NCBI GenBank assembly: GCA_963518445.1
Contig: CAUQIU010000001.1
Span: 774 to 64,773 of the forward strand
Direction of reading: 5' to 3'
Length of the DNA stretch: 64,000 nt
Origin: an uncultured Candidatus Saccharibacteria bacterium
GTDB taxonomy: Bacteria; Patescibacteriota; Saccharimonadia; Saccharimonadales; Saccharimonadaceae
Shown here: in pieces, positions 1-59,618 of the stretch
Position numbering within the stretch: position 1 is the first letter of the stretch
Layout: each line of letters starts with the position of its first letter
Made by a program: the position numbers and the translations under genes
The notes under the pieces: generated by a model
Seen by the model: only the letters and a program-made list of their open reading frames with translations
Told to the model about the DNA's origin: nothing
Databases searched by the model: none

Positions 1-218
1 AGCTGCCACTGCCGGTGAGTCAATTGTATCGAGACAAGATTCATGACATCGACGCGCGGTCGCGGCTGGACACGGTGCTCAGCCGATTTATCCAAACCCG
101 CAATCACTTGTTTGTGGTGATGGATGATGAAACTGAGTTAGGAATCATCACGCTGGAGGACGTGATCGAAGAGATTTTGGACCAGGAAATTGAGGACGAA
201 TACGACGAATTACGATGA
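1..218 (+). CDS. C-terminal fragment of a CBS-domain protein (CNNM/CorC/TlyC-like); the 5' end lies outside the window
   Basis: The frame is open from the window edge to the stop at 216-218. The tail ...LFVVMDDETELGIITLEDVIEEILDQEIEDEYD looks like the second CBS module and acidic tail of DUF21-CBS proteins. Confidence 0.5.
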   Translation, partial: LPLPVSQLYRDKIHDIDARSRLDTVLSRFIQTRNHLFVVMDDETELGIITLEDVIEEILDQEIEDEYDELR

Positions 219-811
219 GCTGTTGGGGCTAGCGGAATCTTCGCTCGCCGTGACGGCGGTCGTGAGCACAGTACCCAGTACTACTCTGACGGATACCGTC
301 TCTCACGAGACACCAGGCAGGGCGGTGACACGAACACTCACTGGACTAACCAGGGGTGTTAAATAAAACACACCCTCCCCACCGAACCTTAGGTTTACGA
401 GTCAATATCTTTAATTATAGATGTTATTCTTTGATATATTTTTTCTATATCGTTAACGGATGTCTGGCTGTTGGTTGCAAGCTGGTCAAATAGTGTCGCT
501 AAAAAATCCCAATCAATTACGGAGTTTTTTTTCAGTGAGGCGAGCCATGGCGAAGCAAATTACGTCTAACGATTCTGCGGTATCTGCTTTGTTTGGTGCG
601 AATTTGTAGATATCAATAATCTCACGAGCAATGATTGCCTGGTGTATTTGATGGTTTTGAATACTGTTCATGACGTTAGTGTAGCATGTAGTATCTATTA
701 AATGATAAGAATATATATTTCTAAACAATTTATTTCCTCAAAAGTACTTGACTTTTTATAGTACCTTGTATAACATAGTACTATGTACAAAGAAACTACA
801 AGGAGCAAGGT

Positions 812-2101
812 ATGAGAAGAATCGATATCATCAAGCGGGCGGGGCGGAATCTTCGCCAGTCGAAAGGTCGGACGATTTTGACGGCATTGGCGATTTCCGT
901 CGGGGCGTTTACGATTGGTCTAGCGCTGATGGCTGGCGAGGGTGGCCGTTTGTATACCAACAGCATAGTCGATGCGGCTGGCGATAAAAAAGTGATCATG
1001 GTTGGTAAAAAAATTGAAGCTGAAAAGAAAGATCAATTGCCAGAATACGGCAATTCAGAACAAGATGCTAGAAAAAATAAGGAATCAGCCATACGAAGCA
1101 AATATGTGCTCAATGACAAGGACTTAGAAAAAATCCGCCAAACGCCGCATGTAAAAACGGTAACACCGGCGTATTCAACTGATGGTGTCGCCTATGCTAA
1201 GAGCTCGGCGAATGGTAAGAAATTTGCGCTGACTGTGGCTGTTAAAATGGACAGGACTCGGGCAGAATTGGCGGCGGGGTCACTGGAAGATTTCATGCCA
1301 AAGCCGGGTGAGATTATCATCCCGGATGATTATGTGAAGCAGTTGGGCTTTAAGGATGCGCAGTCGGCAATTGGCCAGACGATAACCTTGGGTGTGCGCA
1401 GCGCAGGGCAGGGCGGAGATGTCGCCAAAGAGGTGTCGTTCAAAATTGCGGCGGTGGACAAAAAGTCAGACACTGTTTTGTTCTATGAACTAATGTTGAG
1501 AATTTCAACAGCTGACGCTAAGGCTATCTATGAATTTAGCCACGACAAGAGCCAACCACATCAGTACTCAACGGCGATTGCTATGGTGGATGACGAGAGC
1601 AATGTTGATACTGCTAAAGACGTGATCGGCAAAGATTATAATGCATACTCAATTCAGGATATTCGGAAGGCGCTACTAACGATGGTTAATGTAGCACAGG
1701 TGGCGCTGGCAGGATTTGGTGGCTTGGCGCTGCTCGCTAGTGTGTTTGGAATTGTGAATACTATGTATATTTCGGTACTGGAGCGAACTAGTCAAATTGG
1801 CTTAATGAAAGCGCTGGGGATGCGTGGTCGTGATATTGGTAAGTTGTTCCGGTATGAGGCAGCATGGGTTGGTCTGCTCGGCGGCTTGATTGGCGTTGGG
1901 CTGGCGAGTTTAGTGACGTTACTAAACCCAGTGATTACTAGCACCTTGGGTTTAAGTGCAGGGACGAACCTACTGGTCATCAATCCGCTGCAAATTGGAC
2001 TGTTGGTGTTTGGACTAGTAGTGATGGCAGTAATTTCTGGCTGGCTGCCGAGTCGCAAAGCAACAAAGCTGGACCCAATTGAGGCATTAAGGACGGAATA
2101 G
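812..2101 (+). CDS. ABC transporter permease, MacB/FtsX-like
   Basis: N-terminal TM helix, large extracytoplasmic domain and a C-terminal 3-TM FtsX-type domain (…GLMKALGMRGRDIGKLF…LPSRKATKLDPIEALR). AAGGAG Shine-Dalgarno upstream. The adjacent gene encodes an ABC ATPase. Confidence 0.8.
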   Translation: MRRIDIIKRAGRNLRQSKGRTILTALAISVGAFTIGLALMAGEGGRLYTNSIVDAAGDKKVIMVGKKIEAEKKDQLPEYGNSEQDARKNKESAIRSKYVLNDKDLEKIRQTPHVKTVTPAYSTDGVAYAKSSANGKKFALTVAVKMDRTRAELAAGSLEDFMPKPGEIIIPDDYVKQLGFKDAQSAIGQTITLGVRSAGQGGDVAKEVSFKIAAVDKKSDTVLFYELMLRISTADAKAIYEFSHDKSQPHQYSTAIAMVDDESNVDTAKDVIGKDYNAYSIQDIRKALLTMVNVAQVALAGFGGLALLASVFGIVNTMYISVLERTSQIGLMKALGMRGRDIGKLFRYEAAWVGLLGGLIGVGLASLVTLLNPVITSTLGLSAGTNLLVINPLQIGLLVFGLVVMAVISGWLPSRKATKLDPIEALRTE

Positions 2102-2111
2102 GAGAAAGGTC

Positions 2112-2810
2112 ATGATTGAACTAAAAAATGTGACAAAAGTTTACGGCAAAAAGAAGAACCAATTTACGGCGCTGAAAAATGTTAGCCTGACCATCCCAAC
2201 GGGAGCTAGTGTAGCTATCTTAGGTAAATCTGGTTCAGGAAAATCGACGCTGATGCACGCGATTTCCGGGCTGGACCGGCCACAACACGGCCAGGTGATC
2301 ATCGACGGGCAAGATATTTTACAGCTGAAGCCAAAGCGCGTCGATGAGTTTCGCGCCAAGAAAATCGGCTTTATCTTTCAGAGCTTTTTTGTCCAAGGCA
2401 ATGAGAGCGTGGTTGATAATGTTAGTTTACCGCTGGAAATTGCGCGGCTGCCACGGAAAAAGCGGGCGCACAAAATCAATGCGGCGCTTAAGGCGGTGGA
2501 TTTGTATGATAAGCGAAAAAACCGCGCTAAGGACTTGTCGGGCGGACAAAAACAGCGCCTGGCGATTGCCCGGGCAATTGTCAGTGATCCACAAATTATC
2601 TTTGCCGACGAACCGACGGGTAACTTGGACAGTGAAACAGGTGCGAAAGTGGAAGAATTGCTGTTTGATTATAACAAGCAAAAGGGTGTAACATTGATCG
2701 TGGTGACGCATGACGCTGATCTGGCGAAAAAATGTGATCATCAAATTATCATCAAAGATGGTCGGGTTGAGCAATCAACGGTGCCAGGAGGTATAAAGCA
2801 TGGACGTTAG
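2112..2810 (+). CDS. ABC transporter ATP-binding protein (MacB/LolD-type)
   Basis: Walker [10 protein letters not shown], signature LSGGQKQR, Walker [10 protein letters not shown]-loop VTHD. Confidence 0.9.
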
Positions 2811-3147
2811 TGCTTACGCGGAGAGCCTGGCGATTCAGCTCCGCAAAGGCTTTCTGGTGTACTGCGTACTGTTAGTGTGTGCTAAACAACCACAGTACGC
2901 TGGTGATATCGTCAAGCAACTGAGCGATTCGGACTTGATGGTAGTGGAAGGCACGATTTATCCACTACTGAGTCGTTTACAAAAATATGGCTACCTTAAG
3001 CACGAATGGCAGGAAAGCGAACAAGGACCACCGCGCAAATATTATTCACTTACTGACACTGGCGCGCAGCTAGTGGATGAGCTGACGGATCGTATCAAAA
3101 TGTTGAACACTTCGCTAAAAAATATCGAGAAAGGAGCAAAGCGATGA
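2800..3147 (+). CDS. PadR-family transcriptional regulator
   Basis: Winged-HTH pattern QYAGDIVKQL…EGTIYPLLSRLQKYGYLKHEW. Overlaps the upstream ATPase gene by 11 nt. Confidence 0.75.
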   Translation: MDVSAYAESLAIQLRKGFLVYCVLLVCAKQPQYAGDIVKQLSDSDLMVVEGTIYPLLSRLQKYGYLKHEWQESEQGPPRKYYSLTDTGAQLVDELTDRIKMLNTSLKNIEKGAKR

Positions 3148-4454
3148 AAGAAATAACCAGAATTCATTTGGCAAAAACGCCGTTTAGCGTGGAGGTTGAT
3201 GCCAAGAAATCATTGGAACAATATCTTGATTCAATTCAGAAAAATATGCACGCTGAGCCAGAAGCGATGCGCGAAATTGAGGCACGAATGGTGGAGCTTT
3301 TGGCGGAGCGCGGCGTGTCGAAGGACGGTGTCATTAGCCACGATGATATCTTGGTGGTGCAACAACAAATGGGCGAACCGCAGGACTTTGCTGACGGTGA
3401 AATGCCAGAGACGGTTGACACAGCTGAGACGAACGCGAGCAAGCCGACCAAGCGATTGATGCGCGATCCAGACAATGCAATTTTGGGTGGCGTGTGCGCT
3501 GGGATCGCTGCCTACTGGGGAATTAATCCTTTGTGGGTACGCTTGTTGTTCATTTTCTCGCCATTTATCACCTTTGGTACTTCGCTACTGATTTACATTG
3601 TATTGTGGATCAGTATGCCAGAAGCACAAACGGCAGCTGAAAAATTACAGATGCGGGGCGAGGAAGTGACGCTGGATAGCCTGAAAAATTTTTCTTTCAC
3701 CGATAATAAAAAAACGCAGGTTAAAAATACGTTCATTAAAATTGTACAAGTAATTACTTCGTTTGTATTGATCATGATTACCTTTGGTCTGCTGGTTGCT
3801 GTACCAGTAGGGCTCTTTGCTGGCGCAAGTGTCATCAGCTGGATGGACGGTTTTGCTGCACAGCCATGGGCTTTAGGCTTGCTGATCTCTTTGTTGATTG
3901 GTGGAGCTGCTGCGGTGACATTGTTTGGTGTGTTGACGTCCAGCGCAATAAAGTGGCATTTTACGCGAACGGCACTGATCGCAGTGATTATCAGTACGGT
4001 TATCGGAGCATTTTGCATATCGAGTTCGGCTATCTTTGGTACGCAAACTCTAAGAGAGCTGGCGCGGGATGAAGAACGCTTGACGAAAACAATGACTGTA
4101 GAGTTGCCAAAGAGCCTTGAGGGCGTTAAATACGCTGATGTGACCAGTAATGGTTTAGTTAGTAGGCAGGCTATACCATCTCAAGAGACCAAGATTGAGG
4201 TAAAATACTTCTCGCGTAAAGATGGTAAGGCGCCAAAAGTACAAGCTATCGTAGAGGGTGATACTCTTAAGATCAATATTGAACATGATTCACAGCTGTC
4301 TTGTCTCAATGAGTCATTCTTTTGGGGTGTTCACTGTGGCGGTATCACAAAGGTTACCGTGTACGGACCTTTGCAGCTGAAACCGTATAGTCAAGATATT
4401 GATGATTTTATCCCGTATCGGGGGTCATCGCGGACCAATGGCGCATTTTTGTAG
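3144..4454 (+). CDS. PspC-domain membrane protein
   Basis: PspC motif LMRDPDNAILGGVCAGIAAYWGINPLWVRLLFIF followed by several TM helices. 4-nt overlap with the padR-like gene. Confidence 0.75.
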   Translation: MKEITRIHLAKTPFSVEVDAKKSLEQYLDSIQKNMHAEPEAMREIEARMVELLAERGVSKDGVISHDDILVVQQQMGEPQDFADGEMPETVDTAETNASKPTKRLMRDPDNAILGGVCAGIAAYWGINPLWVRLLFIFSPFITFGTSLLIYIVLWISMPEAQTAAEKLQMRGEEVTLDSLKNFSFTDNKKTQVKNTFIKIVQVITSFVLIMITFGLLVAVPVGLFAGASVISWMDGFAAQPWALGLLISLLIGGAAAVTLFGVLTSSAIKWHFTRTALIAVIISTVIGAFCISSSAIFGTQTLRELARDEERLTKTMTVELPKSLEGVKYADVTSNGLVSRQAIPSQETKIEVKYFSRKDGKAPKVQAIVEGDTLKINIEHDSQLSCLNESFFWGVHCGGITKVTVYGPLQLKPYSQDIDDFIPYRGSSRTNGAFL

Positions 4455-4483: not shown

Positions 4484-5326
4484 ATGAATATGAGTTGGTG
4501 GCAAGCAATTGTGCTAGGAATTATCGAAGGGATTACCGAATTCCTGCCTATTTCTAGCACAGGCCACCTGACGATTGCTGAGAAATTGATGGGTATGCCC
4601 CTTGATAACGAGGGGCTGATTGCGTTTACGGCGATTATTCAGATCGGGGCTATAGCAGCAGCGATTATTTATTTTTGGCAGGATATTCAGCGAGTACTAA
4701 TCGCGTGGTGGCGTGGTTTGTGGTGGAAGCGAGCGCGACGGCAATTTGACTACAAGTACGGGTGGGCGATCATCATCGGTTCAGTGCCGATTGCGGTAGT
4801 GGGACTGGTATTCAAGGATGAAATCGAAACAGTGCTGCGTAGTTTGTGGTTTGTGGCGGGTGCGTTGATCATCTGGAGTGGCGTGATGTGGCTGGCTGAT
4901 AAGTATGCTACTACCAAGCGCGTTGAAAAGGATACGACGTGGAGAGATACGCTGGTTATTGGTTTGGGTCAGTGCCTGTCGCTCGTTCCTGGAGTGAGCC
5001 GCTCTGGCGCTACGATATCAGTGGGGTTGCTGCGTGGTTTTGACCGGGTAACAGTGACCAAATTGAGTTTTTTCCTGGGGATTCCAGCGTTGGTGGCAGC
5101 GGGGCTGTTGGAAGTCGTGACTAAATACAAGCATATTTCTGGCGGCGTTGGCTGGACATCAACCATCATCGCGACGGTGGTTTCATTTGGCGTGGGGTAC
5201 GTGGCAGTGGCGTGGCTCTTGAAATTCATCCAGAACAATAATTTTCGCTCATTTATCATCTATCGATTTGCGTTGGGGCTGATATTGGTAGCACTACTGG
5301 GCGCTGGGATAATCTCTCACGTTTAA
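4484..5326 (+). CDS. uppP: Undecaprenyl-diphosphate phosphatase
   Basis: BacA/UppP motifs GIIEGITEFLPISSTGHL and PGVSRSGATI, with 8 TM helices. TGATATAAT box ends 7 nt before the ATG. Confidence 0.85.
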   Translation: MNMSWWQAIVLGIIEGITEFLPISSTGHLTIAEKLMGMPLDNEGLIAFTAIIQIGAIAAAIIYFWQDIQRVLIAWWRGLWWKRARRQFDYKYGWAIIIGSVPIAVVGLVFKDEIETVLRSLWFVAGALIIWSGVMWLADKYATTKRVEKDTTWRDTLVIGLGQCLSLVPGVSRSGATISVGLLRGFDRVTVTKLSFFLGIPALVAAGLLEVVTKYKHISGGVGWTSTIIATVVSFGVGYVAVAWLLKFIQNNNFRSFIIYRFALGLILVALLGAGIISHV

Positions 5327-5351
5327 GCCAAAATTGGTATATAATGAGGGC

Positions 5352-6593
5352 ATGCTAGACATCAAATTTATTCGAGAAAATGCTGATTTGGTGCAAAAAT
5401 CAGCACATGATAAGGGATACACCGTTGATATTGCGACATTGTTGCAATTGGATGACGAGCGCCGCAACCTGCAAAAGCAAGTTGAAACACTGCGTGAACA
5501 GCGAAATGCAATTTCAGCCAAGATGAAAGGCGGCCGTCCAGATCAGGAGCTGATCGACCAGGGAAAACAGCTAAAAATTGAGTTGGCGGAACGTGAAAGC
5601 TACTTAAAATCAACAGAGGAAAAAGTAGCTGCAATTCTGAAAAACGTGCCGAACATCACCTTTGATGATGTGCCGCTTGGCGGCGAGGAAGATTCGGTTG
5701 AGGTAAAGGCGTACGGTGAGCGTAAAACGGGCGCCAAGGATCATTTGGATTATGCCGTTAGTCGTGGTTGGGTGGACTTTGAGCGCGGCGCGAAAGTAGC
5801 TGGCGCAAAGTTTTATTATCTTAAGGGCGACTTGGCGCTGCTAGAAAATGCTGTGACGCAGTTTGCGCTGGATTATGTGACGAAGCAGGGCTTTACGTTC
5901 ATGACCGTGCCGCATATGGTGAATATGCGCACAGCGGAAGGCGCCGGCTTTGCGCCAAAAGGTGAAGGTAGTAATGAGTATGTGGTCGAGGGCGAGGATT
6001 TGACGCTGATTGGGACGGCGGAAATGCCGCTGACGGGTTATCACGCTGATGAGATTTTGGATGAGAAAGATTTGCCCCTGCTCTACGCTGGGTATAGCCC
6101 GTGCTACCGCAAGGAAGCGGGCACGTACGGCAAACACACCCGTGGACTATTCCGAGTACACCAATTTAACAAATTGGAAATGTACGCGTTCTGTCTGCCG
6201 GAGCAGTCCAAGGAAATTCATGAAAAAATCCTCAGCGTCGAGGAAGCATTGTGGCAGCAAATTGGTATTTCGTACCACGTGGTGAATATCGCGGCGGGCG
6301 ACTTGGGTGCGCCAGCTGCCAAAAAGTATGACATTGAATATTGGTCACCGGTCGATCAGACTTACCGCGAGCTGACGAGTTGCTCAAATTGTACGGATTA
6401 TCAAGCGCGCGGTTTGAATATTCGGGTGCGGCGAGCGGATGGCAACATTGAGACAGTTCACACCTTGAACGGTACGGCAGTCTCATTGGCGCGGTCATTG
6501 GTGGTGATTTTGGAAAACTTCCAGAACGAGGACGGCAGTTTGACAGTGCCAGAAGTGCTGCGACCATACATAGGCGGACGTGAGCGAATTTAA
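5352..6593 (+). CDS. serS: Seryl-tRNA synthetase
   Basis: Begins MLDIKFIRENADLV (coiled-coil arm). Class II motifs FRVHQFNKLE and GSGLAVSRL-like NGTAVSLARSLVVILEN. Start moved from the TTG at 5334 to the ATG at 5352, which lies 6 nt after TATAAT (5340-5345). Confidence 0.9.
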   Translation: MLDIKFIRENADLVQKSAHDKGYTVDIATLLQLDDERRNLQKQVETLREQRNAISAKMKGGRPDQELIDQGKQLKIELAERESYLKSTEEKVAAILKNVPNITFDDVPLGGEEDSVEVKAYGERKTGAKDHLDYAVSRGWVDFERGAKVAGAKFYYLKGDLALLENAVTQFALDYVTKQGFTFMTVPHMVNMRTAEGAGFAPKGEGSNEYVVEGEDLTLIGTAEMPLTGYHADEILDEKDLPLLYAGYSPCYRKEAGTYGKHTRGLFRVHQFNKLEMYAFCLPEQSKEIHEKILSVEEALWQQIGISYHVVNIAAGDLGAPAAKKYDIEYWSPVDQTYRELTSCSNCTDYQARGLNIRVRRADGNIETVHTLNGTAVSLARSLVVILENFQNEDGSLTVPEVLRPYIGGRERI

Positions 6594-6632
6594 CGAATGC
6601 ATGGTATAATGTAGGTATAACGAAGGAGGGAT

Positions 6633-7004
6633 ATGATTACCAATCTGACAATCACTGGTGTAAAGTACGAACTGAATGACACGACCAAACGGTATATTGA
6701 GAAAAAAATTGGCCCATTGGATCGGTTTTTGCCACGTCACGCTCGTAAAAGCGTTACGGCAGATGTGAAGATTAAGCAAATTGATAACCCTGGCGGCAAC
6801 AAATATGAGGTTGAAGTTATCATCAATGTCCCGGACAAGGTCATCACCGCTAAAGACTCAACAATGAACGTGTTGGCGGCTGTGGATATCGTCGAGACCA
6901 AATTGAACGGTCAATTGCGTCGCTACAAGGACGACACGTTGGCGCACGTTGGTCGTAGCCGTGGTGTGTTGGCACGGTTCAAGCGCAGTTTTCGTCGCGG
7001 GTAG
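6633..7004 (+). CDS. hpf: Ribosome hibernation promoting factor (short HPF/RaiA type)
   Basis: MITNLTITGVKYELNDTTKRYIEKKIGPLDRF… matches the sigma54-modulation/S30EA fold pattern. GAAGGAGGG Shine-Dalgarno at 6622-6630. Confidence 0.75.
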   Translation: MITNLTITGVKYELNDTTKRYIEKKIGPLDRFLPRHARKSVTADVKIKQIDNPGGNKYEVEVIINVPDKVITAKDSTMNVLAAVDIVETKLNGQLRRYKDDTLAHVGRSRGVLARFKRSFRRG

Positions 7005-7016
7005 TACAAACTACCC
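6999..7016. terminator. Hairpin spanning the two convergent stop codons (hpf and the 312-aa gene)
   Basis: GGGTAGT-ACAA-ACTACCC gives a 7-bp stem and 4-nt loop. There is no U tract, so its function is uncertain. Confidence 0.3.
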
Positions 7017-7949
7017 GACAGGTGAGCGGGTACCAGTGTCATTACCTGAATAGCCGGCTGGTAGTGTATAAAGGGCCAGCACGTGCCCTCTTGTAAAGGC
7101 AGGTGTATCCCAAGTGATTATTGGCGTCGAGTTACTAATAACATTTGCTGGTCGCCAACACCATGAATCACGATGCCTATCGATCAGCGGCGTATTGTTT
7201 CGTAGTGCAGCTAGGAGATTGTCAGTTAAGGCTTCGGCTACAGTTTGGTGCTCGAGAGGCGGGCTTTGTTGTTGGCTCTGTTCATATGACATACCCAGGT
7301 GTGCTGGCTCCTCTGTACCAGAAAGCAGACGAAGTGTCCAGGTAATAGTTTTGTCGCCATCCTTGATTTGATGAGTTGGTAGAGTCGATAATCCCGGAGT
7401 GGTTGTTGAAGTTGGCGCCTGGTTAAGGTATCTCCAAGTATTATTATCAATTATATTATCAATGTGCAACCCATAGTCTTTGTGGTCAATCCCCAGGGGA
7501 TTGTCTTGTATCGTCTTGTCCAAAGTCATTGCTTTGGCGATGTCTAACCAAGTTTCTTTACCAAGGCCGTGAGGAGCCAGGACGATGTGCGGGGTGACGC
7601 CATCTTCTTGCTCCATTCGCTCAAATTGCTCAGCCAAATAGCGAAAATTGACACCAGCTGATAGCATTTGTTCTGGTGTTGGTGCTGATAAGCCAGCATG
7701 CCCAACCAAACGTTCGGACAAGAGAAAAGCTTGTTCAAACGAGTGTTGAATCTCAAGATTGTCTATTTGCTCTAAGCCACCGAAGCCAGCTGTGCCTTGT
7801 TTCTGAGCTTCATCAACAGCGGTGTCAAGTACCCCAAAGAGGGCGGTGGCGCCAAAATCCTCAGAAATTTTTTGTTTTAATTGAGCTCTCTCCCACGCAG
7901 CTGCAGCGGCAGTATTGATATGTAGCGGGAGAAGATTAGGATTGGGCAT
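7011..7949 (-). CDS. Hypothetical protein, paralog A of the pair flanking the vWA/AAA module
   Basis: 312-aa ORF. Clear similarity to the 11830-12741 product: MPNPNLL/MANPNLL, AAAAWERAQ/AEAAWERAQ, QGTAGFGGL..NLE/QGVAGFNGL..NLE, and C-terminal SPVG/PPVG. Confidence 0.6.
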   Translation of the reverse strand: MPNPNLLPLHINTAAAAAWERAQLKQKISEDFGATALFGVLDTAVDEAQKQGTAGFGGLEQIDNLEIQHSFEQAFLLSERLVGHAGLSAPTPEQMLSAGVNFRYLAEQFERMEQEDGVTPHIVLAPHGLGKETWLDIAKAMTLDKTIQDNPLGIDHKDYGLHIDNIIDNNTWRYLNQAPTSTTTPGLSTLPTHQIKDGDKTITWTLRLLSGTEEPAHLGMSYEQSQQQSPPLEHQTVAEALTDNLLAALRNNTPLIDRHRDSWCWRPANVISNSTPIITWDTPAFTRGHVLALYTLPAGYSGNDTGTRSPVG

Positions 7950-7962
7950 AGAGTATATTCTT

Positions 7963-9897
7963 TTATGTTCGGATGGTTGTTTCTATAAATGATTGTAGCA
8001 CGTTTGGTAAATCTTTGGGGTCGTTGATACGTTTGGCGTTCGGAGCGTACAGTTGTTCAGCGTCGTCTGAGCTAATGGATACGCCGTATACTACAGTGTT
8101 CTGGTCACGGCGAAGCTGGCTGATAGCTGCCTGGGCGGCGCCATGGTCATTACTCTTACCGTCAGTCACGACAATGACAATTCGCTGGCGATCTTGGTCG
8201 TGGGGTAGATGAGCAATTTCCTGGAGGGCTAAATAATCCGCCGTACCGCCCGCATTGGCTGCAGTGATGGCTGCGTATGTATCAAGCCGTTGTTTGTCAT
8301 TTAGGTTACTACTGAGTGGTTTGTGACAGATTGCAGTATCATCAAATGTGTATAGTGAGGTACATACTGACAGGTCGGATAAATCAATACTTTGTTGTTG
8401 TTCTAGCTGTCGGATATCACGTTCCATACCAGCGAGCCCCTCTAGCATGATGACTGCACAACTGGCAGCGGCTTGTGCGGGCGTACCGCTCATGGAACCA
8501 GAGCAGTCGAACACAAAGAAATAGTCAGTCTTACATCTCAGCTCGGTTCGTCCGCGGACGGTTTCGTAACGCTGAAATGCCTCTGGGGTGACACTGCTTT
8601 TGATGTCGACCACAGTTTGTGCCAGGTGGTTGGGGTCGAGGATATCGCCGTCTTGGTGAGCGCGGCGACTGAGACCGCGGCGGGTAGCAACAACTTCATC
8701 CAAGACTGATTGAAAGACTTGGCGCATCTGATCAATCTGCCTATGGAGTCGCTTGATTTCATTATCATACTGCTGTTTTTCGCGTAGTGAATGTCCAGTT
8801 TGCTCTTGATAGCGGCGGTTGGCCGCTATCTGACGGGCGCGTTCTCGCTGTTCGGGTGTCATGGTTTCGTGACGTTTTTCTTGAGTAGCTTTGTCGATAG
8901 CGTCATGGATTTTTTCATGTTCTTTGGGACTGAACGGCTCGGGATGCTTGTTGTCGAAATAATCAGCGTAAGCGTCCGCGAATGGATTGTCGCCTTGTTT
9001 AGTGTCAGCGTTTTGTGATGGGTCGGCATCTTGCTGCTCGGTAGTGTTGTTGGTGGTCTGTTGATCGCCGTTTTGCTGCTGGGTTTGGGTGTTTTCTGCC
9101 TCTTGTTTGTCTAATTTTATGAGATTTTCGTATTTTGGCCAAATCTGCGTGAGCCAATAGTCAAAACGGTCACTGCCGGAGAGTTTCTTGCCATTAGCGC
9201 CCCTTGCACCAGGATCGGTCAAGAACGAGATGAGGTCAATCTGTCCACCCTGAAAGTTGCGCAGCTGGTCTATGGCTTCATCAACTTCTTGGCGAACAGG
9301 TGTTTTGCTGCCTGGTATCATCTCCTGGCGGATGATTTTGTAGAGAAATTGCAGGTGCATGGGGTTGCTAGCATAATCAACTGGTTCGCCGTCACGCTCC
9401 GCTGGAAACAGGCGACTGGCGTAAATATCGGCACCAACTTCTTGCATGGCGGGTAGCATGTTCATGATCTGTTTGTTACCGTGGATATCGGTCAGAATAT
9501 TATTGAAAATATGGCGTGCTTGTTGCTCCTGAGGGTCTTTGCTGCCCATGATGAATGCATTTTGCCGCGCTGAAAATACAGGATCTCGCTTGATGTCGCG
9601 CACATGGGCCATCAGTTCATGCAGGGTAGCAAATACACAGTGATCAGCTGAATAACCTTTTTCAATGAAGAATGACGGATCGATAGTGAATGAACCAGTT
9701 TTGGTATCTGTAGCCCAGCCTTCGCCAACCGCTACCTGTACGTTCATGCCAGTCAGTCGACACAGTGCTGGTATTTGGTCGTCCAGAAATGCCGCGGCTT
9801 TATCAAGCGAGGCCTGACGCTCTACTGCTGCCTCTTGCTCGGGCGTCACCGTCGGTGATTCTGAGTGATTTATTGATGGGTGTAATACTTCGGTCAT
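7963..9897 (-). CDS. von Willebrand factor A (MIDAS) domain protein with an N-terminal HExxxH-containing domain and an acidic/Q-rich linker
   Basis: C-terminal vWA domain with DxSxS MIDAS motif (FVFDCSGSMSG), later GGTADY and IVIVVTDGKSND. N-terminal LHELMAHVRD. Low-complexity stretch QEAENTQTQQQNGDQQTTNNTTEQQDADPSQNAD. Confidence 0.75.
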   Translation of the reverse strand: MTEVLHPSINHSESPTVTPEQEAAVERQASLDKAAAFLDDQIPALCRLTGMNVQVAVGEGWATDTKTGSFTIDPSFFIEKGYSADHCVFATLHELMAHVRDIKRDPVFSARQNAFIMGSKDPQEQQARHIFNNILTDIHGNKQIMNMLPAMQEVGADIYASRLFPAERDGEPVDYASNPMHLQFLYKIIRQEMIPGSKTPVRQEVDEAIDQLRNFQGGQIDLISFLTDPGARGANGKKLSGSDRFDYWLTQIWPKYENLIKLDKQEAENTQTQQQNGDQQTTNNTTEQQDADPSQNADTKQGDNPFADAYADYFDNKHPEPFSPKEHEKIHDAIDKATQEKRHETMTPEQRERARQIAANRRYQEQTGHSLREKQQYDNEIKRLHRQIDQMRQVFQSVLDEVVATRRGLSRRAHQDGDILDPNHLAQTVVDIKSSVTPEAFQRYETVRGRTELRCKTDYFFVFDCSGSMSGTPAQAAASCAVIMLEGLAGMERDIRQLEQQQSIDLSDLSVCTSLYTFDDTAICHKPLSSNLNDKQRLDTYAAITAANAGGTADYLALQEIAHLPHDQDRQRIVIVVTDGKSNDHGAAQAAISQLRRDQNTVVYGVSISSDDAEQLYAPNAKRINDPKDLPNVLQSFIETTIRT

Positions 9898-9964
9898 TTT
9901 CTTTACAAGCCTTATGCTTATAGTATATAATACGAGTCAGATATTATAAAACACCAACACGCTC

Positions 9965-11821
9965 ATGCATACAGCTGAAACAAAACCCGTCATTACTGAA
10001 CTCCATCTTGAACCTTCTGTTTTAGAGACGTATTATACTCCAGATGCGGCTGATCGAACCGTGGAAGGAGTTATGGAGTTGATGGCTGGTCTGCAGGAGA
10101 GTATGCAAGCGGTGAGATCTGATTGGCGGACAGCGGCCATGGGAGACCGACAACTCTTGGAGCAACTGGCGGCGCCGCACGTTGAACGCATCAATGTGTC
10201 GAGGCGTAAAGACCATCCAGAAGAGCCGGATATAGCAGTGAGCAAGATTAGCGAGAACTTTTTGCTGGGCTTGGCTGAACCTGACTGGGAGGGGCAGATG
10301 CCGCGCGACACAAGCGAAGAGGAGCTGCAGCGTTGGGAGGATTTTAAAAATGAGCATCCTGATGTGGCTGACAATCTGGAAGATTGGTACATGTACCATG
10401 CGAAATTACATGAGCTACGCAAAGACGCTGTGCTCATGAAGGAATTTGACGAGGAGTACCGCGGCGAACAGATGGCGGCAACTCGGGCGGCGGCTGAGTT
10501 CTTGCGTGCTCAGGACAGAAAAGATGAAATCAGTAGGCGGATGGCAAGTTTGCGTGCTAAGGCGGTAAAAATGGGGCGTCCTTTGACGGCAGGCGAAAGG
10601 CGGAAAATAACCGCATGGCAAAAGCAGTTGTCTGAGGTTGATGACAATATCGATATTCCGCCAAATAGCAGCAAGGAAAGGTTTTTAGAAGAAGTAACCC
10701 GTCTACAGGTCCGTGAATGGAAACGACAACTGGACAGCGGCCTGTTGATGACCGAGCAGATGCAGACAATCATTGACGAGACGCTGCCGGCTATGGTGCG
10801 GGGTGAGCCAACGTTGTTTGTGGGTGAGACAGGTGGTGCCAAAACTGCTCTGGCGGAGTACATGGTACAAACCTATTTTGGTGTTGATCCTGAGTTTGTC
10901 AGTGCATATGGCGATGTTAATAGCTACCAGTTGATGGGTAAGCAAGAGCTAAAGGCTGAGGGTGAAAAAATGGAATGGGATCAGATATTCCAGGAGCTCA
11001 AAGATCGTGATATTGACTGGGATAAGCTGAGTGACGAAACGAGAGCGCAGTTAGTTGTGCAAGGTATGCAGATGATTAATTTACCGGGCTCAACTGAATC
11101 CGTTTGGGTTCCAGGTCCAGTCGTGCGGGCTATAGAAGGTGGTAGGCCACTCATCCTTGATGAAATTAATGCCATGCCGCCAGAACTGTTGAAACGCTTG
11201 AATAAAATCATGCAGCTGCGTCCAGGTGATAGATTTACCGTTCAGGAAGATTCTGGGAAGGTTGTTGAGGTTCAGTCAGGTTTTTGTATCATCGCCACGG
11301 CGAATGAAAAGTCAAAACGCTACAAGGGCGTGGATGATTTGAGCGTTGAGTTCCAAAACCGTTTTGGCGCAAATATCAATCGCGTGCGTTACCCTGACTA
11401 CGACAAGGGCTATGACGAATATCCGCGTGAGAATGCTCAGCTGGCCATGGCGACTGTGGCAACGCAGCGAGGTGAGTTGCCGCCAGACATTGACGAAGGA
11501 GAATTTGAGAACTTTGTGAGAGCAGCTCGATTGAGTCAGCAGATATTTAGCGGTACCAACGGTGAAGGGTACAACCAGTTCATTGACACGGAAAAAATGG
11601 TGGATGATCGTCCTGGTCTGGAGGAAACAGTATTAGCACCACGCACCATGGTGGATATACTACATAAGGTTACTGGCAGTTACGGGACAGTGTCGCTGAA
11701 GCGAGCTTGTCAAACATTTTTGGATGGCATCAAAAACCCAAATGACCGCCAGGTGATGCATCATGTCCTTGAGTATCATGATTTGCTACCAGAGGAACTC
11801 CTTAACGATGAAAGGATATAG
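9965..11821 (+). CDS. AAA_5 (MoxR/midasin/McrB-like) ATPase with an N-terminal helical extension of about 270 aa
   Basis: P-loop LFVGETGGAKTALAEYM, Walker B RPLILDEINAMPPELLKRLNKIM, then FCIIATANEK. Transcribed divergently from the vWA gene. Confidence 0.7.
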   Translation: MHTAETKPVITELHLEPSVLETYYTPDAADRTVEGVMELMAGLQESMQAVRSDWRTAAMGDRQLLEQLAAPHVERINVSRRKDHPEEPDIAVSKISENFLLGLAEPDWEGQMPRDTSEEELQRWEDFKNEHPDVADNLEDWYMYHAKLHELRKDAVLMKEFDEEYRGEQMAATRAAAEFLRAQDRKDEISRRMASLRAKAVKMGRPLTAGERRKITAWQKQLSEVDDNIDIPPNSSKERFLEEVTRLQVREWKRQLDSGLLMTEQMQTIIDETLPAMVRGEPTLFVGETGGAKTALAEYMVQTYFGVDPEFVSAYGDVNSYQLMGKQELKAEGEKMEWDQIFQELKDRDIDWDKLSDETRAQLVVQGMQMINLPGSTESVWVPGPVVRAIEGGRPLILDEINAMPPELLKRLNKIMQLRPGDRFTVQEDSGKVVEVQSGFCIIATANEKSKRYKGVDDLSVEFQNRFGANINRVRYPDYDKGYDEYPRENAQLAMATVATQRGELPPDIDEGEFENFVRAARLSQQIFSGTNGEGYNQFIDTEKMVDDRPGLEETVLAPRTMVDILHKVTGSYGTVSLKRACQTFLDGIKNPNDRQVMHHVLEYHDLLPEELLNDERI

Positions 11822-11829
11822 ACTATTTC

Positions 11830-12741
11830 ATGGCTAACCCTAATCTTCTGTCGCCAAATAGTCGCATCGCTGCTGAGGCTGCGTGGGAACGCGCTCAGGA
11901 AAAGCGTGAAGCTTGGCCTTTTGGGAGCAGTGCAACCTATCAATCACTCGGGGCCGCTTCGCTCCATACGTTAGACGCTGCTGTTGTTAGAGCCAGGGAA
12001 CAAGGAGTGGCGGGATTTAATGGACTGGATGGAATTACCAACCTAGAGACTAGAGAGCTGTTTAAGCGAGACCTTGAAGATTATAAAACGATTTTTGCTG
12101 GAGCGGGTATCGATATGCCGACGCCAGCTGAGTTGGCACAGGGCGGTATTGATTTTAGGCATCTGGCGGAGTTGAAAGAAACATTACCAGAGTATGACTT
12201 GGTTGTGGCGCCACTGACATTGCCGTTGGATTCAGTGCGTCAACTCATATCTGCGGTTGCGCGAGATGAGACTGTGCCGAATAACCCCCTTCGTCTGGCA
12301 GAGGAAAATGATAGCACTAGAAGTGACGGATTACTCATACTGGCATTTGCGGTTAATTGGGATCAAGCCATGACAAGTACTGCGCAAAACTGGCAGCTAC
12401 CAACTATGGATGATGAGCACAGGTGGACGGCTTTTTTGCTACCGAACAATGATGCTACATGGCGTGACAGTCCTCAGAATACTCAGTCAGCACTAGAGGA
12501 AAAAATGACAGTTCCAGTTGTAAGTTATGTCACATATCAGATGTATCGCATTCGCCAGGGGGTACCGCCGCTAGATTTTGAGAGTAGTCGCACAAGGATG
12601 GCGGTATCTAGCGTATATAATAAGACAGATGTGTTGACTGCTTTTTGGGATGGTTCTGAGGGCGGTATAGGTATCAATTACCACATCTACTCGTATGATG
12701 GTCTCATGCAGAATGTGAGGCTCTGCCCTCCTGTTGGATAG
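11830..12741 (+). CDS. Hypothetical protein, paralog B of the pair flanking the vWA/AAA module
   Basis: 303-aa ORF starting 8 nt after the AAA gene. Shares the N-terminal, central and C-terminal motifs of the 7011-7949 product. Confidence 0.6.
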   Translation: MANPNLLSPNSRIAAEAAWERAQEKREAWPFGSSATYQSLGAASLHTLDAAVVRAREQGVAGFNGLDGITNLETRELFKRDLEDYKTIFAGAGIDMPTPAELAQGGIDFRHLAELKETLPEYDLVVAPLTLPLDSVRQLISAVARDETVPNNPLRLAEENDSTRSDGLLILAFAVNWDQAMTSTAQNWQLPTMDDEHRWTAFLLPNNDATWRDSPQNTQSALEEKMTVPVVSYVTYQMYRIRQGVPPLDFESSRTRMAVSSVYNKTDVLTAFWDGSEGGIGINYHIYSYDGLMQNVRLCPPVG

Positions 12742-51675: not shown

Positions 51676-52579
51676 GGGATATAGGTTAGTGAGGTGGGGT
51701 ATCACCCAGCCTGATACTTTGTTCTCTTTTTGTTCTAAAATGAGAATGGCAAAAAATATATATTACAATATGCAAAAAACAAAAAGTCAAATGTAGGGAA
51801 TCCACAAAAAAACAGAGCGGGGGAATAAAAAAAGAAAAAAGTCAAATACAGGTCGATCATCCAAGATGTTATAATGTGGAAAACTTATCACGGTATAATG
51901 TAGTAAATACTACGTTAGGTGCTTATAGTTCTGCTGTATGAGTTCTTTCAGAAACCATACAAGCGGTGTGGTATATACTTATATTTCAAGACACAGTGTG
52001 TGATGAGTAATGATAAGAGCAAAAGTTACAATTTGTTCGCGCAGTAGAAGATGGTAGACTCCAAAGCCCCTGCTTAGTTAGCTGGATATATCCTTATGTA
52101 GCTATGTGTGCCGCACTCATTATCATACATGGCTATCTCCTATACAGTTCGTAAAACATACATTGTGCGACATTAAGAATATTTCTCTTTTATGAATACA
52201 CACTCATTGATTTTGATATCTTATAATTGGATTTTAGTTGCCTGTACCGTTTGGTCGGTTAAAAATTACTTAGCTTGCCCTTTGCCATATGTCTGTCGAT
52301 CATTTTGTCTATATCGTGAATTTCTAGCTTCTGGATCTTGAGCCTTGAGGCTCCTTGTTTACCGAGCCATAGCAATATATCAGGATGTTATGGCTATGTG
52401 CTGGCGTATGGTATATGCTAATATTTTAAGTTCCCTTTTTGTTCTATAATCCTTTAGTGACCAACGCATGTGAGGTTTGACGGAAGGCGAGGTTGGTGCC
52501 GTGTCAGCTGGGCAGGGATCACTTCTCTGCCGCCTTAGATACGGTTGCTGTTTTTGCTGGATGATATTATCATAGGGAT

Positions 52580-53035
52580 ATGAGAGTTATTTCACCTGAC
52601 AATAGGGGTTTGCACGAGATAGTACCGTCGGTAGATTTGTTTTTGGCGGGAGGTATTACCAATTGTCCAGACTGGCAGGCGGAGGCGCTAGCCCTATTGA
52701 GTAATCAAGATATAGCAGTGGCCAATCCACGTCGTAAGAGAGCACTAGCCCTTCAAGGCAAAGGAGCAACGCATCAGATAGAGTGGGAGTATGAATATCT
52801 CAGGCGGGCGCGAGTGGTGTTGTTTTGGTTTCCAAAGGAATCCCTCTGCCCTATCGCACTGTTCGAATTGGGTAAGGAGCTTGAGAGCGGATCGCGCGTA
52901 GTGATTGGTGTGCATCCAGAGTATGCACGGCGGTTTGACATCATCACGCAGGTGCGTTGTTATGATCCTGATTTTCCAATATATAGTGAGCTTGCTGATG
53001 TGGTGGCAGCGGCTGTGGGTGCGCTTAGAGCCTGA
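52580..53035 (+). CDS. Nucleoside 2-deoxyribosyltransferase-like (Nuc_deoxyri_tr2-type) protein
   Basis: VDLFLAGGITNCPDWQ…VANPRR…WEYEYLRRARVVLFWFP…PIALFELG fits the Rossmann-like NDT-family layout. GC is core-like, while the flanks are AT-rich. Confidence 0.45.
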   Translation: MRVISPDNRGLHEIVPSVDLFLAGGITNCPDWQAEALALLSNQDIAVANPRRKRALALQGKGATHQIEWEYEYLRRARVVLFWFPKESLCPIALFELGKELESGSRVVIGVHPEYARRFDIITQVRCYDPDFPIYSELADVVAAAVGALRA

Positions 53036-53247
53036 GTTGGAGGTAGTATATTTAAGTACTCTGCCCTGTTAAGAGTTCTGGGCTAGTTTCATAATTTGAG
53101 CATTGACAGCTTGATATATATCCTTGGTCACCTGTTGTTTGCTATACTATCATTAGGATTCGTGGACTGTAATTGCCCCGTTTCGGACGTATCATCAAGC
53201 CTCGACATATTATATGCAGGATTGGTGCGGCCAGATGACGAATCATT

Positions 53248-53283
53248 AAAGTAGGTAACCACGTTCAGTGTGTTACCTACTTT
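53248..53283. terminator. Strong hairpin at the leader-distal end of the CRISPR array
   Basis: AAAGTAGGTAAC-(12-nt loop)-GTTACCTACTTT is a 12-bp perfect stem, followed by TTTT on the + strand and abutting the degenerate terminal repeat. Confidence 0.5.
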
Positions 53284-53649: not shown

Positions 53650-53702
53650 CTCAATTGTGAAGTTTTACAGGGGTGAACGTGATAGCGCTTACCCTGTCGT
53701 TA

Positions 53703-54709: not shown

Positions 54710-54711
54710 AC

Positions 54712-55590: not shown

Positions 55591-55591
55591 G

Positions 55592-59593: not shown

Positions 59594-59618
59594 CGTAAAT
59601 CCCCTTTTAATTATTTTT

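Follow-up and report, generated by a model that had tools for sequence, protein, structure and literature searches.

A predicted midasin-type AAA_5/vWA module with polymorphic partner proteins in Saccharibacteria

Midasin (Rea1) is a eukaryotic remodeller in ribosome biogenesis in which AAA_5 modules work with a MIDAS/vWA domain: six AAA modules and the MIDAS lie on one chain of ~5000 aa, with a low-complexity acidic/polar linker ahead of the MIDAS/vWA domain, and the MIDAS captures specific partner proteins, i.e. the UBL domains of Rsa4 and Ytm1. The NorQ/NorD, CbbQ/CbbO and CoxD/CoxE systems are bacterial two-gene maturation couples of an AAA_5 ATPase and a vWA protein, encoded co-directionally and acting on a fixed metalloenzyme client; NorD (69 kDa) has the order N-domain, linker, C-terminal vWA domain, and a finger-in-pore, MIDAS-to-target mechanism was described for NorQ/NorD (PMC13036017). 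CobS/CobT and BchI/BchD (including phage CobS-like proteins) have an acidic linker before the vWA domain. Finally, the vWA-MoxR ternary (VMAP) systems (Kaur, Burroughs, Iyer, Aravind 2020) and the Esr pathway of Actinomycetales (2026 preprint) combine a conserved AAA+/vWA core with a divergent 'sensor', a variable third component that is specific to each family and lacks a recognisable catalytic site.

Here we describe a four-gene module in a 64,000-nucleotide stretch of DNA (the window) from an uncultured Candidatus Saccharibacteria bacterium, in which an AAA_5/vWA core is accompanied by two proteins (A and B) of a previously undescribed family. The locus had earlier been read as an uncharacterised native system, and this reading is supported; new here are the midasin-type ATPase, the NorD/CobT-like architecture of the vWA protein and its HExxxH motif, the fast evolution of the partners, their polymorphic C-terminal halves and their concerted N-termini. 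The module has so far been seen only in Saccharibacteria (TM7), which are tiny epibionts, and no literature on it was found.

Gene layout and the AAA_5/vWA core

The genes for the vWA/MIDAS protein (644 aa; 7963-9897, - strand) and for the AAA_5 ATPase (618 aa; 9965-11821, + strand) diverge from an AT-rich promoter region of 67 bp (9898-9964, no strand assigned; 31% GC). They are followed, after 13 nt and 8 nt, by the genes for partner A (312 aa; 7011-7949, - strand) and partner B (303 aa, on the AAA arm; 11830-12741, + strand), respectively; all of these ORFs, gaps and lengths are exactly as originally predicted. Gaps of 8-13 nt or stop/start overlaps across loci suggest co-translation of the genes of each arm. 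On its + strand, the divergent region contains a sigma-70-like promoter close to consensus (9902-9931; TTTACA-18-TATAAT, 11/12 positions) and a weaker one overlapping it on the - strand (9950-9922; TTTATA-17-TATACT). It is 92-95% identical in close relatives, and is deleted together with both N-termini in locus L017. The GC content of the module (0.48-0.50) is core-like relative to the window mean (~0.47), and visibly lower for the genuine defence locus of the window, CRISPR-Cas9. A VirD4/TraG-like coupling protein is also encoded in the window (59786-62428).

The ATPase comprises an N-domain (aa 1-270), the AAA+ core (aa 271-480) and a C-domain (aa 481-618), with Walker A at aa 287-294 (GETGGAKT) and Walker B at aa 396-400 (LILDE). 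Walker A is unusual in that Ala precedes Lys; it is kept as GE(T/M)GGAKT down to 33% identity, with T everywhere except in L023. The Pfam match is AAA_5 (aa 356-467, E=1e-14). Among PDB entries, midasin/Rea1 was the best match with the single sequence (E=3e-24) and with a profile (E=5e-35), whereas NorQ reached E=3e-5 with the profile; the CbbQ_C domain is lacking, and the match to phrog_249 (CobS-like; E=8e-16) is far below the family cut-off. On these sequence comparisons the ATPase is assigned to the midasin-type AAA_5 branch, as a single-module member. The AAA_5 and vWA identities of the core had been recognised correctly, and the MoxR-like label is refined: the ATPase falls in neither the classical MoxR nor the CbbQ/NorQ branch.

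The vWA protein has an N-domain, a low-complexity and helical linker, and a C-terminal vWA domain, a predicted architecture of the NorD/CbbO/CobT type, and is similar to NorD in size. Its relatives (154 clusters down to 43% identity, Saccharibacteria) bear 'VWA domain-containing protein' as the only name. The vWA domain (aa 451-644; 7966-8547, - strand), located by Pfam (VWA, aa 460-617, E=6e-10) and motif scan, contains an intact MIDAS, with DxSxS represented by DCSGS (aa 464-468; 8494-8508, - strand) plus the conserved T and D (D464, S466, S468 and D579 invariant, T552 at least 90% conserved); the profile of the protein matched integrin I-domains and PTMP1 in the PDB. As in midasin and the chelatase couples, the linker is acidic/polar and precedes the vWA domain. 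The match of the vWA protein to CobT is faint and far below the cut-off (TIGR01651, over the linker, E=0.002; CobT in the PDB, E=0.06), as are all scores of the module against the CobS/CobT and BchI/BchD families, and there is no CobN/BchH-like large subunit. To our knowledge, Saccharibacteria make no corrins or chlorophyll.

The N-terminal domain of the vWA protein (aa 1-260; 9118-9897, - strand) is without a Pfam match and carries HELMAH (aa 93-98; 9604-9621, - strand), a candidate metal site. None of 21 vWA-protein sequences, down to 28% identity, departs from H93, E94 and H98, and HExxxH is also found in L022, L023, L024 and L026; the motif differs from the canonical zincin HExxH. The model of this domain (pLDDT 80, pTM 0.76) gave no significant Foldseek match (best E=0.4), with zincin peptidases as seven of the nine top matches; judged from the model, the domain possibly holds a zincin-like metal site, and may be a zincin-like peptidase.

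The core thus differs from midasin in having one AAA module per 618-aa chain, the vWA domain on a separate protein, an extra HExxxH domain, and partners that are not UBL proteins. It differs from the NorQ/NorD group in its divergent gene order and in a polymorphic, dedicated partner family in place of a fixed metalloenzyme client; NOR, Rubisco or CODH genes were found beside the module in none of the loci read (oral-type genomes).

Partner proteins A and B

The partner family comprises 245 clusters at 50% identity; relatives of A form 53 clusters at 90% identity, none of them named, and those of B 29. A and B had been predicted to be paralogs, with a series of shared motifs, all of which are present. 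The BLASTP alignment of A and B is significant (E=4e-27; 34% identity across the first 175 aa), with no alignment of the C-terminal halves, and in a 24-sequence family alignment the homology is full-length, including an invariant W-T (WTLRLL/WTAFLL) and a terminal R..PVG. The view that the partners belong to no known family also holds, as no match was obtained in Pfam, NCBIfam, PHROGs, PADLOC, PDB or BFVD. A confident AlphaFold2 model of A (pLDDT 82.3, pTM 0.78) found no counterpart in the PDB or BFVD by Foldseek, and the modelled fold is unrecognised. The partners are predicted to be soluble; no transmembrane segment was found in A, and no Sec signals in the partners. W204 is the sole residue invariant family-wide, and no catalytic constellation was seen among the conserved residues. 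Both extreme termini are conserved across the family, with an NPF/NPN-type N-terminus throughout and the C-terminal Arg kept in 94%. The acidic residue E107 is invariant in the clade of the window and not conserved family-wide, so that the MIDAS ligand cannot be pinned to a particular residue.

These features bear on the vWA-MoxR 'ternary' conflict systems (Kaur et al. 2020), of which A and B might be divergent VMAP-like third components. The logic would be the same (AAA+ chaperone, vWA co-chaperone and a lineage-specific third protein), the third protein is likewise alpha+beta, not unifiable with known domains and without evident catalytic residues, and the variable component diversifies in a like manner. 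However, none of 62 partners matched any Pfam model, VMAP models included, PADLOC was silent on the module, and the ATPase is of the midasin-type AAA_5 rather than the classical MoxR subfamily. The vWA domain is C-terminal here, behind the HExxxH domain, whereas vWA proteins of VMAP systems bear C-terminal effector domains; no effector, EAD, caspase, trypsin or TIR domain, and no kinase, FHA or beta-propeller part as in these systems and Esr, is found in the module. With a unicellular host of sub-1-Mb genome, and a clade other than those of VMAP systems and Esr, the module also lies outside the reported phyletic pattern, and we consider membership very improbable.

Each partner is divided by a boundary motif, D-x-T-x-x-(D/N)-NPL. 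In A this is DKTIQDNPL (aa 144-152; 7494-7520, - strand), which separates the conserved handle from a C-terminal half (aa 153-312; 7014-7493, - strand) that is polymorphic, with variable surfaces on a scaffold that includes WTLRLL and a terminal RSPVG; in B it is DETVPNNPL (aa 146-154; 12265-12291, + strand), followed by the polymorphic half (12292-12738, + strand). The breakpoint after the motif is sharp. Identity between A of the window and of L005 is 95-100% before the motif and 30-65% right after it, and dS of the partner C-terminal half is >2 or saturated, versus 0.14-0.31 in the adjoining segment. For A of the window against L005, L006, L009 and L010, the C-terminal half gave dS 2.0-2.4 and dN 0.36-0.39, and aa 41-145 gave dS 0.14-0.20; the same C-terminal half is identical in L003. 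Deeply divergent C-terminal allele classes occur among genomes with 97-100% identical flanking proteins, and the variable halves keep one scaffold, with W204 invariant and the same secondary-structure pattern.

The partners (omega 0.30-0.34; A ~0.30, B 0.34 overall) evolve ~10 times faster than the flanking genes (0.03-0.04), with the core genes at 0.10-0.12 (vWA protein, 0.12) and the AAA+ core of the ATPase at 0.04. In the C-terminal half of B, omega is 0.63-0.81 among members of one allele class, and comparisons across classes are saturated. Since the whole-gene omega of the partners is <1, positive selection is not demonstrated, and weak constraint could partly account for their fast evolution.

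The first 25 residues (MPNPNLL...AAWERAQ in A; 7875-7949, - strand), the tip of the shared handle, evolve in concert in the two arms. They are 64% identical between A and B of the window (remainder, 21-35%) and 44-72% identical between the arms of each genome (remainder, 14-37%, except in L020, where it is 42-91% because of a conversion tract). They are closer between paralogues inside one genome than between cross-species orthologues (40-52%), and are the only stretch with A/B similarity at the nucleotide level. Gene-conversion tracts were found in three lineages, L023 and L024 (100% identical, inverted) and L020 (480 nt).

A conserved N-part, a variable C-part exchanged by recombination and a short motif between them, as in polymorphic toxin/CDI cassettes (there VENN or PT-motifs), raise the question of effectors. 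The partners could be polymorphic effectors delivered into the actinobacterial host or competitors, with the AAA_5/vWA core as unfoldase, chaperone or loading factor and the R-x-P-V-(G/W) tail as an export signal, e.g. for a type IV secretion-like apparatus. The conserved termini with their C-terminal Arg, the lack of Sec signals, the coupling protein in the same window, and the defences that hosts mount against Saccharibacteria (PMC13622651) would fit. We nevertheless regard this as quite unlikely: the variable halves stay on one scaffold without switching among unrelated toxin folds, no conserved catalytic residues, secretion/delivery domain or toxin domain matches were seen, there are no immunity-like small ORFs behind the partners in the window, and none of 26 loci is linked to secretion genes. 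We also know of no AAA_5/vWA pairs that act as secretion chaperones.

Distribution and inheritance

In all 26 informative neighbourhoods the partner genes directly adjoin the divergent vWA/AAA_5 pair, over a range of core identity that extends from 95% to 22-33%, and no unlinked homologue was seen among those with a readable neighbourhood. The mirror symmetry noted originally holds as an exact 1+1 layout in the clade of the window only; elsewhere, 0-3 copies lie behind the vWA gene and 1-4 behind the AAA_5 gene (1-5 per locus). The module is syntenic, next to serS, hpf and secA, even in deeply diverged genomes, with hpf adjoining again in L019 and L025, and was not found in phage, plasmid or viral collections. 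As predicted, it is by gene order and composition native, i.e. chromosomal and vertically inherited; this synteny, the core GC, the vertical inheritance and the lack of mobile-element presence are atypical of defence islands. It is also, as judged from the genomes, dispensable in at least two lineages: Southlakia epibionticum ML1 has three small ORFs at the syntenic site in place of the module, and PF00092 appears nowhere in its Table S2, and in the complete genome CP128407.1 the module is broken by a 1.2-kb deletion.

Such stable inheritance could also indicate a housekeeping chaperone. The AAA_5/vWA pair, like NorQD, CbbQO, CoxDE or CobST, would then mature or remodel one fixed complex of the cell, with A and B as accessory or adaptor subunits under weak constraint. 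Given the recurrent hpf neighbourhood and the role of midasin in ribosome biogenesis, this complex could be the ribosome, also in its hibernating form. The strong conservation of the core, its GC content, the synteny, midasin as best sequence relative and the NorD-like architecture are all consistent with this. A fixed client, however, fails to explain recombining, divergent C-terminal alleles between near-identical flanks, or a partner copy number that varies from locus to locus; the absence in ML1 and the deletion in CP128407.1 show that the module is not essential, and the hpf adjacency may be mere conserved gene order of a tiny genome. We therefore consider a housekeeping role unlikely.

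Proposed role of the module

We propose, with a probability of roughly 55%, that the locus is a chromosomally inherited, ATP-driven remodelling module of Saccharibacteria, a 'split midasin' with the partners as dedicated ligands, and with a role in conflict or specificity. On the model of NorQ/NorD, CbbQ/CbbO and Rea1, a midasin-type AAA_5 ring would be supplied by the 618-aa protein, the vWA domain of the 644-aa co-factor would dock on or in this ring, and the MIDAS metal site would take hold of the target by a peptide or an acidic side chain; the mechanism described for NorQ/NorD (PMC13036017) is expected to apply. From gene linkage we infer that the partners interact physically with the core. 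Their front part, which is made up of an NPN/NPF peptide without structure at the N-terminus, a bundle of helices and the first beta-alpha unit, would be the handle through which the shared core recognises them, and the C-terminal half, with strain-variable, recombined surfaces on a common scaffold, most likely has a variable target. In the most probable reading, the partners are putative clients or adaptors that engage the MIDAS and whose recognition surfaces vary.

The original prediction had left the choice between a chaperone couple and a conflict system; polymorphic and recombining partners shift the reading towards conflict or recognition, and away from a plain chaperone. A conserved front joined to a strain-swapped back half suggests that the module is a machine for recognition or conflict, driven by ATP, and not a routine housekeeping device. 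For the Saccharibacteria, the sequence evidence points to a role in fending off phage or other invaders, or in how the cells interact with their actinobacterial host, rather than in the assembly of a fixed housekeeping complex.

Gene layout and core proteins

The module is built around a divergent pair of core genes, each followed by a partner gene. The gene of the vWA/MIDAS protein (7963-9897, - strand, 644 aa; Pfam VWA, E=6e-10) is followed by partner A (7011-7949, - strand, 312 aa), and the gene of the AAA_5 ATPase (9965-11821, + strand, 618 aa; Pfam AAA_5, E=1e-14) by partner B (11830-12741, + strand, 303 aa). The four ORFs lie exactly where the original prediction had placed them, with the claimed gaps of 13 nt and 8 nt between core gene and partner, and the spacer between the vWA and AAA_5 genes is indeed 67 bp long and AT-rich (31% GC); on the + strand it has a promoter close to consensus (TTTACA-18-TATAAT), overlapped by a weaker one on the - strand. 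The module is flanked by pspC, uppP, serS and hpf on one side and by secA on the other. Its GC content is that of the surrounding core genome, as the prediction had held. No signal peptide or TM-compatible hydrophobic segment was found in the four module proteins, and no additional partner paralogue in the window.

The core-like GC content of the module contrasts with that of a type II-A CRISPR-Cas locus in the same window (52500-59600), which is low (0.41-0.44 versus about 0.47-0.49); its Cas9 (55592-59593), Cas1 (54712-55590) and Csn2 (53703-54392) genes, all on the - strand, were identified by Pfam. An 880-aa coupling protein with TrwB/TraG/VirD4-type domains (59786-62428, - strand) adjoins this locus. 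Saccharibacteria are known to possess a type IV secretion-like apparatus, of which the coupling protein may be a part.

At 54.9 bits (E=1.2e-14), the ATPase lies above the PF07728 (AAA_5) cut-off of 22 bits, and its orthologues match this family as well. It contains a single AAA+ core (aa 271-480) between a 270-aa N-domain and a 140-aa C-domain, neither of which matched Pfam when isolated. Walker B is canonical (LILDE, 396-400), and Walker A (GETGGAKT, 287-294) has Ala where Gly is usual before Lys; the G, GG and AKT positions of this putative ATP site are invariant in nine sequences, down to 33% identity. The best-scoring relatives are midasin/Rea1 AAA modules (E=3e-24 with the single sequence; 124 bits and E=5e-35 with a profile against the PDB); NorQ reached 26 bits (E=3e-5) in the profile search, and no CbbQ_C domain was found by Pfam. 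By these scores the ATPase is far closer to midasin/Rea1 than to NorQ and is placed in the midasin-type branch of AAA_5. Midasin forms its ring from six tandem AAA modules on one polypeptide; with one AAA core in 618 aa, the protein is thus a single-module midasin relative, and not a midasin orthologue. The scores do not make the pair an aerobic cobaltochelatase CobS/CobT: TIGR01651 (CobT) scored 17 bits against the NCBIfam cut-off of 759, and for CobS no equivalog match was obtained for the module, with a phrog_249 match (E=8e-16) across the AAA core.

The vWA protein (PF00092, 40 bits against a cut-off of 23.8) is composed of an N-domain, a low-complexity and helical linker, and a C-terminal vWA domain. 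The MIDAS signature of this domain is intact: DCSGS lies at 464-468, and in 21 sequences D464, S466, S468 and D579 are invariant and the conservation of T552 reaches at least 90%. In size and in the order of its domains the protein agrees with NorD and CbbO (order of NorD from PMC13036017), co-factors whose C-terminal vWA domain docks on the AAA_5 ring through a finger and the C-terminus; PDB searches gave no sequence match to either of the two.

The N-domain carries HELMAH (93-98), with H93, E94 and H98 invariant in the 21 sequences. A reading as the canonical zincin motif HExxH, which in zincins sits on the active-site helix and is joined by a third metal ligand, was dropped when a regular-expression check returned the non-canonical spacing HExxxH; the M49 DPP III family has the motif HExxGH. 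Neither the full protein nor the isolated N-domain matched a peptidase family in Pfam. A model of residues 1-330 (pLDDT 80, pTM 0.76) gave no significant match in Foldseek (best E=0.4, TM at most 0.2), and zincin peptidases made up seven of the nine best matches (E=0.4-2.8; ArdC, PprI/IrrE, abylysin, selecase and anthrax lethal factor). This likeness is a resemblance and falls short of zincin membership, and a zincin-like metal site in the N-domain is a lead rather than a finding.

The partner family and its distribution

The predicted paralogy of A and B was borne out by BLASTP (E=4e-27 across the first 175 residues), and a 24-sequence alignment of both families extends the homology over the full length, with an invariant W-T in WTLRLL/WTAFLL and a terminal R..PVG. 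The two proteins had been described as impossible to place, and they matched nothing in Pfam, NCBIfam, PHROGs or PADLOC; likewise, none of 62 diverse members, scanned singly, had a consistent Pfam match (VMAP included) at E<=1. Across the family W204 alone is invariant, P90, P126, Q244 and R308 are more than 90% conserved, and no catalytic-looking constellation was found. Both termini are conserved, as an NPN/NPF-type peptide at the N-terminus and an LGxRxPV(W/G) tail at the C-terminus. E107 was discarded as a universal candidate for a MIDAS ligand, being invariant in the window's clade only and not family-wide.

In the confident AlphaFold2 model of A (pLDDT 82.3, pTM 0.78), a helical bundle that ends near aa 116 follows a poorly ordered peptide at the N-terminus and precedes an alpha/beta region (121-312). 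Structure searches had been proposed for both paralogues; that for A, run with Foldseek, returned no significant match, with a best E of 1.7 (TM about 0.1) in the PDB and of 0.15 in BFVD, and a profile search of the PDB with the A+B alignment was empty. ADP-ribosyltransferase toxins among the PDB matches of A (ranks 1 and 28; rmsd 17 A) were regarded as noise, since there is no conserved R-S-E or other catalytic pattern. Judged from the model, the partner fold appears previously unrecognised among PDB and BFVD structures.

A similar logic connects the module with the vWA-MoxR ternary conflict systems, which are defined by a VMAP-C third component and by effector domains fused either to VMAP or to the C-terminus of the vWA protein (Kaur et al. 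2020). Membership in these systems fails at every defining feature that can be tested: 0 of the 62 partner members matched VMAP, none of the VMAP effector domains (trypsin, caspase, TIR, EADs) was found in the four module proteins, and the C-terminal position is here taken by the vWA domain itself.

Named homologues all belong to Candidatus Saccharibacteria (oral taxon 488, Nanogingivalaceae, Microsaccharimonas), and a scan of one genome per GTDB species, with an A-only alignment as query, yielded 16 loci, all in Saccharibacteria. A profile of the A+B alignment searched against 1.84 billion representative proteins gave 245 clusters at E<=1e-3, nearly all of single-domain proteins of 270-355 aa. 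By its named homologues and the GTDB scan, the partner family has so far been found only in Saccharibacteria; the most divergent loci (L021-L026) are metagenomic. Every sufficiently long locus in a tblastn survey has the window's architecture and chromosomal place, with B and AAA_5 towards secA, vWA and A in the opposite direction, and hpf and serS beside them. The original prediction had asked whether partner homologues always accompany the core, and they adjoin a divergent AAA_5/vWA pair in 26 of 26 informative neighbourhoods, including all distant members with a readable contig (L021-L026). Among 50,697 phage genomes and 72,556 plasmids none had a homologue of the partners, and IMG/VR contigs had none of the vWA N-domain; a phage, plasmid or viral origin was therefore rejected.

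The number of partners varies. Among loci with distant vWA orthologues, L020 (56% identity) has a divergent core with one partner per arm, and L019 (43% identity) has one in the AAA arm and three in the vWA arm; the counts (vWA arm + AAA arm) are 1+4 in L022 and 0+4 in L025, and L026 has three or more partners. A rule of at least one partner in each arm is ruled out by L025, the vWA arm of which has none. Altogether, the partners are a new family of soluble proteins with a conserved front and a polymorphic back, and with one to five members per module.

Several loci show further peculiarities. In L025 the most divergent module (156-3671) has core proteins 22-24% identical to those of the window, with HExxxH and GxxGGxK[ST] absent by regular expression, and keeps four tandem partners and the adjacent hpf; this module may have degenerated or shifted in function. 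In L024, from a very divergent lineage, the module lies directly beside a Replic_Relax protein and a large serine recombinase (Resolvase; 5232-8112), the only context seen with mobile-element genes nearby. Two loci of oral taxon 488 (L001, 11214-13037; L002, 8707-10680) have between serS and uppP an extra ORF of 607-657 aa that the window lacks and that in L002 encodes collagen-like repeats; their serS is 45% identical to that of the window, against 74-92% for the neighbouring genes, which suggests that serS was replaced.

Allele replacement, gene conversion and loss

Among close relatives, dN/dS (NG86) is 0.03-0.04 for uppP, serS and hpf, 0.10 for the ATPase (0.04 for its core), 0.12 for the vWA protein, and 0.30 and 0.34 for A and B, respectively. 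The divergence of the partners has sharp borders: when the window is compared with L005, the identity of A stays at 95-100% as far as DKTIQDNPL (aa 144-152) and then falls at once to 30-65%, with a like drop in B directly after DETVPNNPL (aa 146-154); between the window and L003, the C-terminal half of A is identical and the first 35 residues differ. In the C-terminal half of A dS is 2.0-2.4, against 0.14-0.20 in the adjacent segment, and in that of B it is saturated between allele classes; within an allele class, omega of B is 0.63-0.81 in the C-terminal half and about 0.11-0.19 in the N-half. Pure relaxed constraint does not account for the C-terminal divergence, since dS is saturated there and 0.1-0.6 in adjacent segments and flanks. 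The pattern is best described as recombinational allele replacement with elevated non-synonymous change, probably beyond weak constraint.

As an observation on the wider region, dS between the window and L003 is 0.07 for A, 0.76 for vWA, 0.25 for AAA_5 and 0.58 for serS, and dS is strongly uneven from gene to gene, from uppP to secA, within single genome pairs (window versus L003, L005, L006 and L010); this suggests that related oral species of Saccharibacteria often exchange DNA by homologous recombination, outside the module as well.

In the conserved front part of the partners (the handle), the first 25 residues are 44-72% identical between the arms within each genome and the remainder 14-37%; L020 is the exception, its remainder reaching 42-91% through a conversion tract. 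In the window these handle tips are 64% identical between A and B, against 40-52% for orthologues of other species, and the tips of the two arms are read as evolving in concert. The partner genes of L020 (5111-6202, - strand; 9959-11062, + strand) share a perfect inverted tract of about 480 nt, and perfectly identical inverted stretches, each cut by the contig end, lie at the partner 5' ends in L023 (1-117 and 4091-4207; at least 117 nt) and L024 (2-112 and 4137-4247; at least 111 nt). These tracts indicate ongoing gene conversion between the arms; with such inverted repeats, inversion of the core segment could occur, too. In a neighbour-joining tree, the A-type and B-type proteins of the window's clade form two separate orthologous groups and the two partners of L020 group together; L019, L022, L025 and L026 have lineage-specific tandem expansions.

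The possibility that the partners are polymorphic effectors is weakened by two observations, namely that their variable halves keep one scaffold and that immunity-like genes are absent behind them.

When set against its sister L018, the complete genome of oral taxon 488 strain 106.1.1 (CP128407.1; L017) proves to have lost 1,196 bp in one clean deletion (junction at L017 5353-5357; absent segment, L018 4157-5352). The lost segment comprises the divergent promoter and the beginnings of both core genes (~273 codons of the ATPase, ~101 codons of the vWA protein); with both partners left whole, the locus is a natural knock-out of the core. Southlakia epibionticum ML1 lacks a PF00092 protein and has three small ORFs at the syntenic site (PMC10633639, Tables S1 and S2). 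From this deletion and this absence, the module is dispensable in at least two lineages.

A fixed housekeeping client of the AAA_5/vWA core would agree with the conserved synteny and the core GC content; it leaves the allele classes, the copy-number change and the natural losses unexplained. All three are accounted for by a role in defence or at the host interface, with which the vertical, island-free inheritance fits uneasily and for which PADLOC-DB v2 offers no match to known defence models (noise level for the ATPase, E>=0.015; none for the vWA protein, A or B).

Proposed function and significance

The comparisons establish, at the level of sequence, a tight linkage of a midasin-type AAA_5 ATPase, a MIDAS-competent vWA protein with an HExxxH N-domain, and the partners. 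By analogy with AAA_5/vWA couples, the ATPase would form a ring on which the vWA protein would dock; the MIDAS site, perhaps together with the HExxxH cleft, would engage the partners via the conserved handle, and their variable half would contact something variable. This proposal is modelled on the behaviour of NorQD (finger-in-pore, MIDAS-to-target binding; PMC13036017) and on the general model of AAA_5/vWA couples (Kaur et al. 2020). We propose tentatively, with a probability of roughly three in ten, that Patescibacteria have in this module a new kind of intracellular system for recognition or immunity, in which a midasin-like ring and a MIDAS/HExxxH protein use interchangeable polymorphic readers of previously unseen fold for the detection of variable foreign proteins from phage or host. 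Its output would be ATP-driven remodelling and possibly proteolysis, and the inverted, gene-converting copies would let the recognition halves diversify and at the same time preserve a uniform docking handle.

AAA_5/vWA couples as such are already known. The module differs from them in its single-module midasin-type ATPase, in the HExxxH N-domain of its vWA protein, in its divergent, roughly mirror-symmetric layout and, above all, in its dedicated polymorphic partner family of apparently unrecognised fold. A prior description was not found in the literature searched, which yielded only host-side MoxR-vWA systems.

In genomes of roughly 0.7-1 Mb, Saccharibacteria maintain a module of 5.7 kb (up to about 8 kb with expanded partners) at an almost unchanged chromosomal position in deeply diverged lineages, with a partner family that lies outside the domain and structure libraries searched. 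Its core is strongly conserved and putatively ATP-driven, and its partners, with their allele classes, cassette-like breakpoints, changing copy number and gene conversion, have features typical of conflict or specificity genes; there is a substantial chance that the module represents a new mechanism of recognition or conflict in Patescibacteria. Now that Saccharibacteria can be transformed (PMC10633639), and with natural loss-of-function variants available (CP128407.1 and Southlakia ML1), the hypothesis is directly testable. If the partners are recognition modules, the module would provide a simple, genetically tractable 'split midasin' for the study of MIDAS-ligand recognition, and would represent, for the candidate phyla radiation, a new mechanism of immunity or host specificity.
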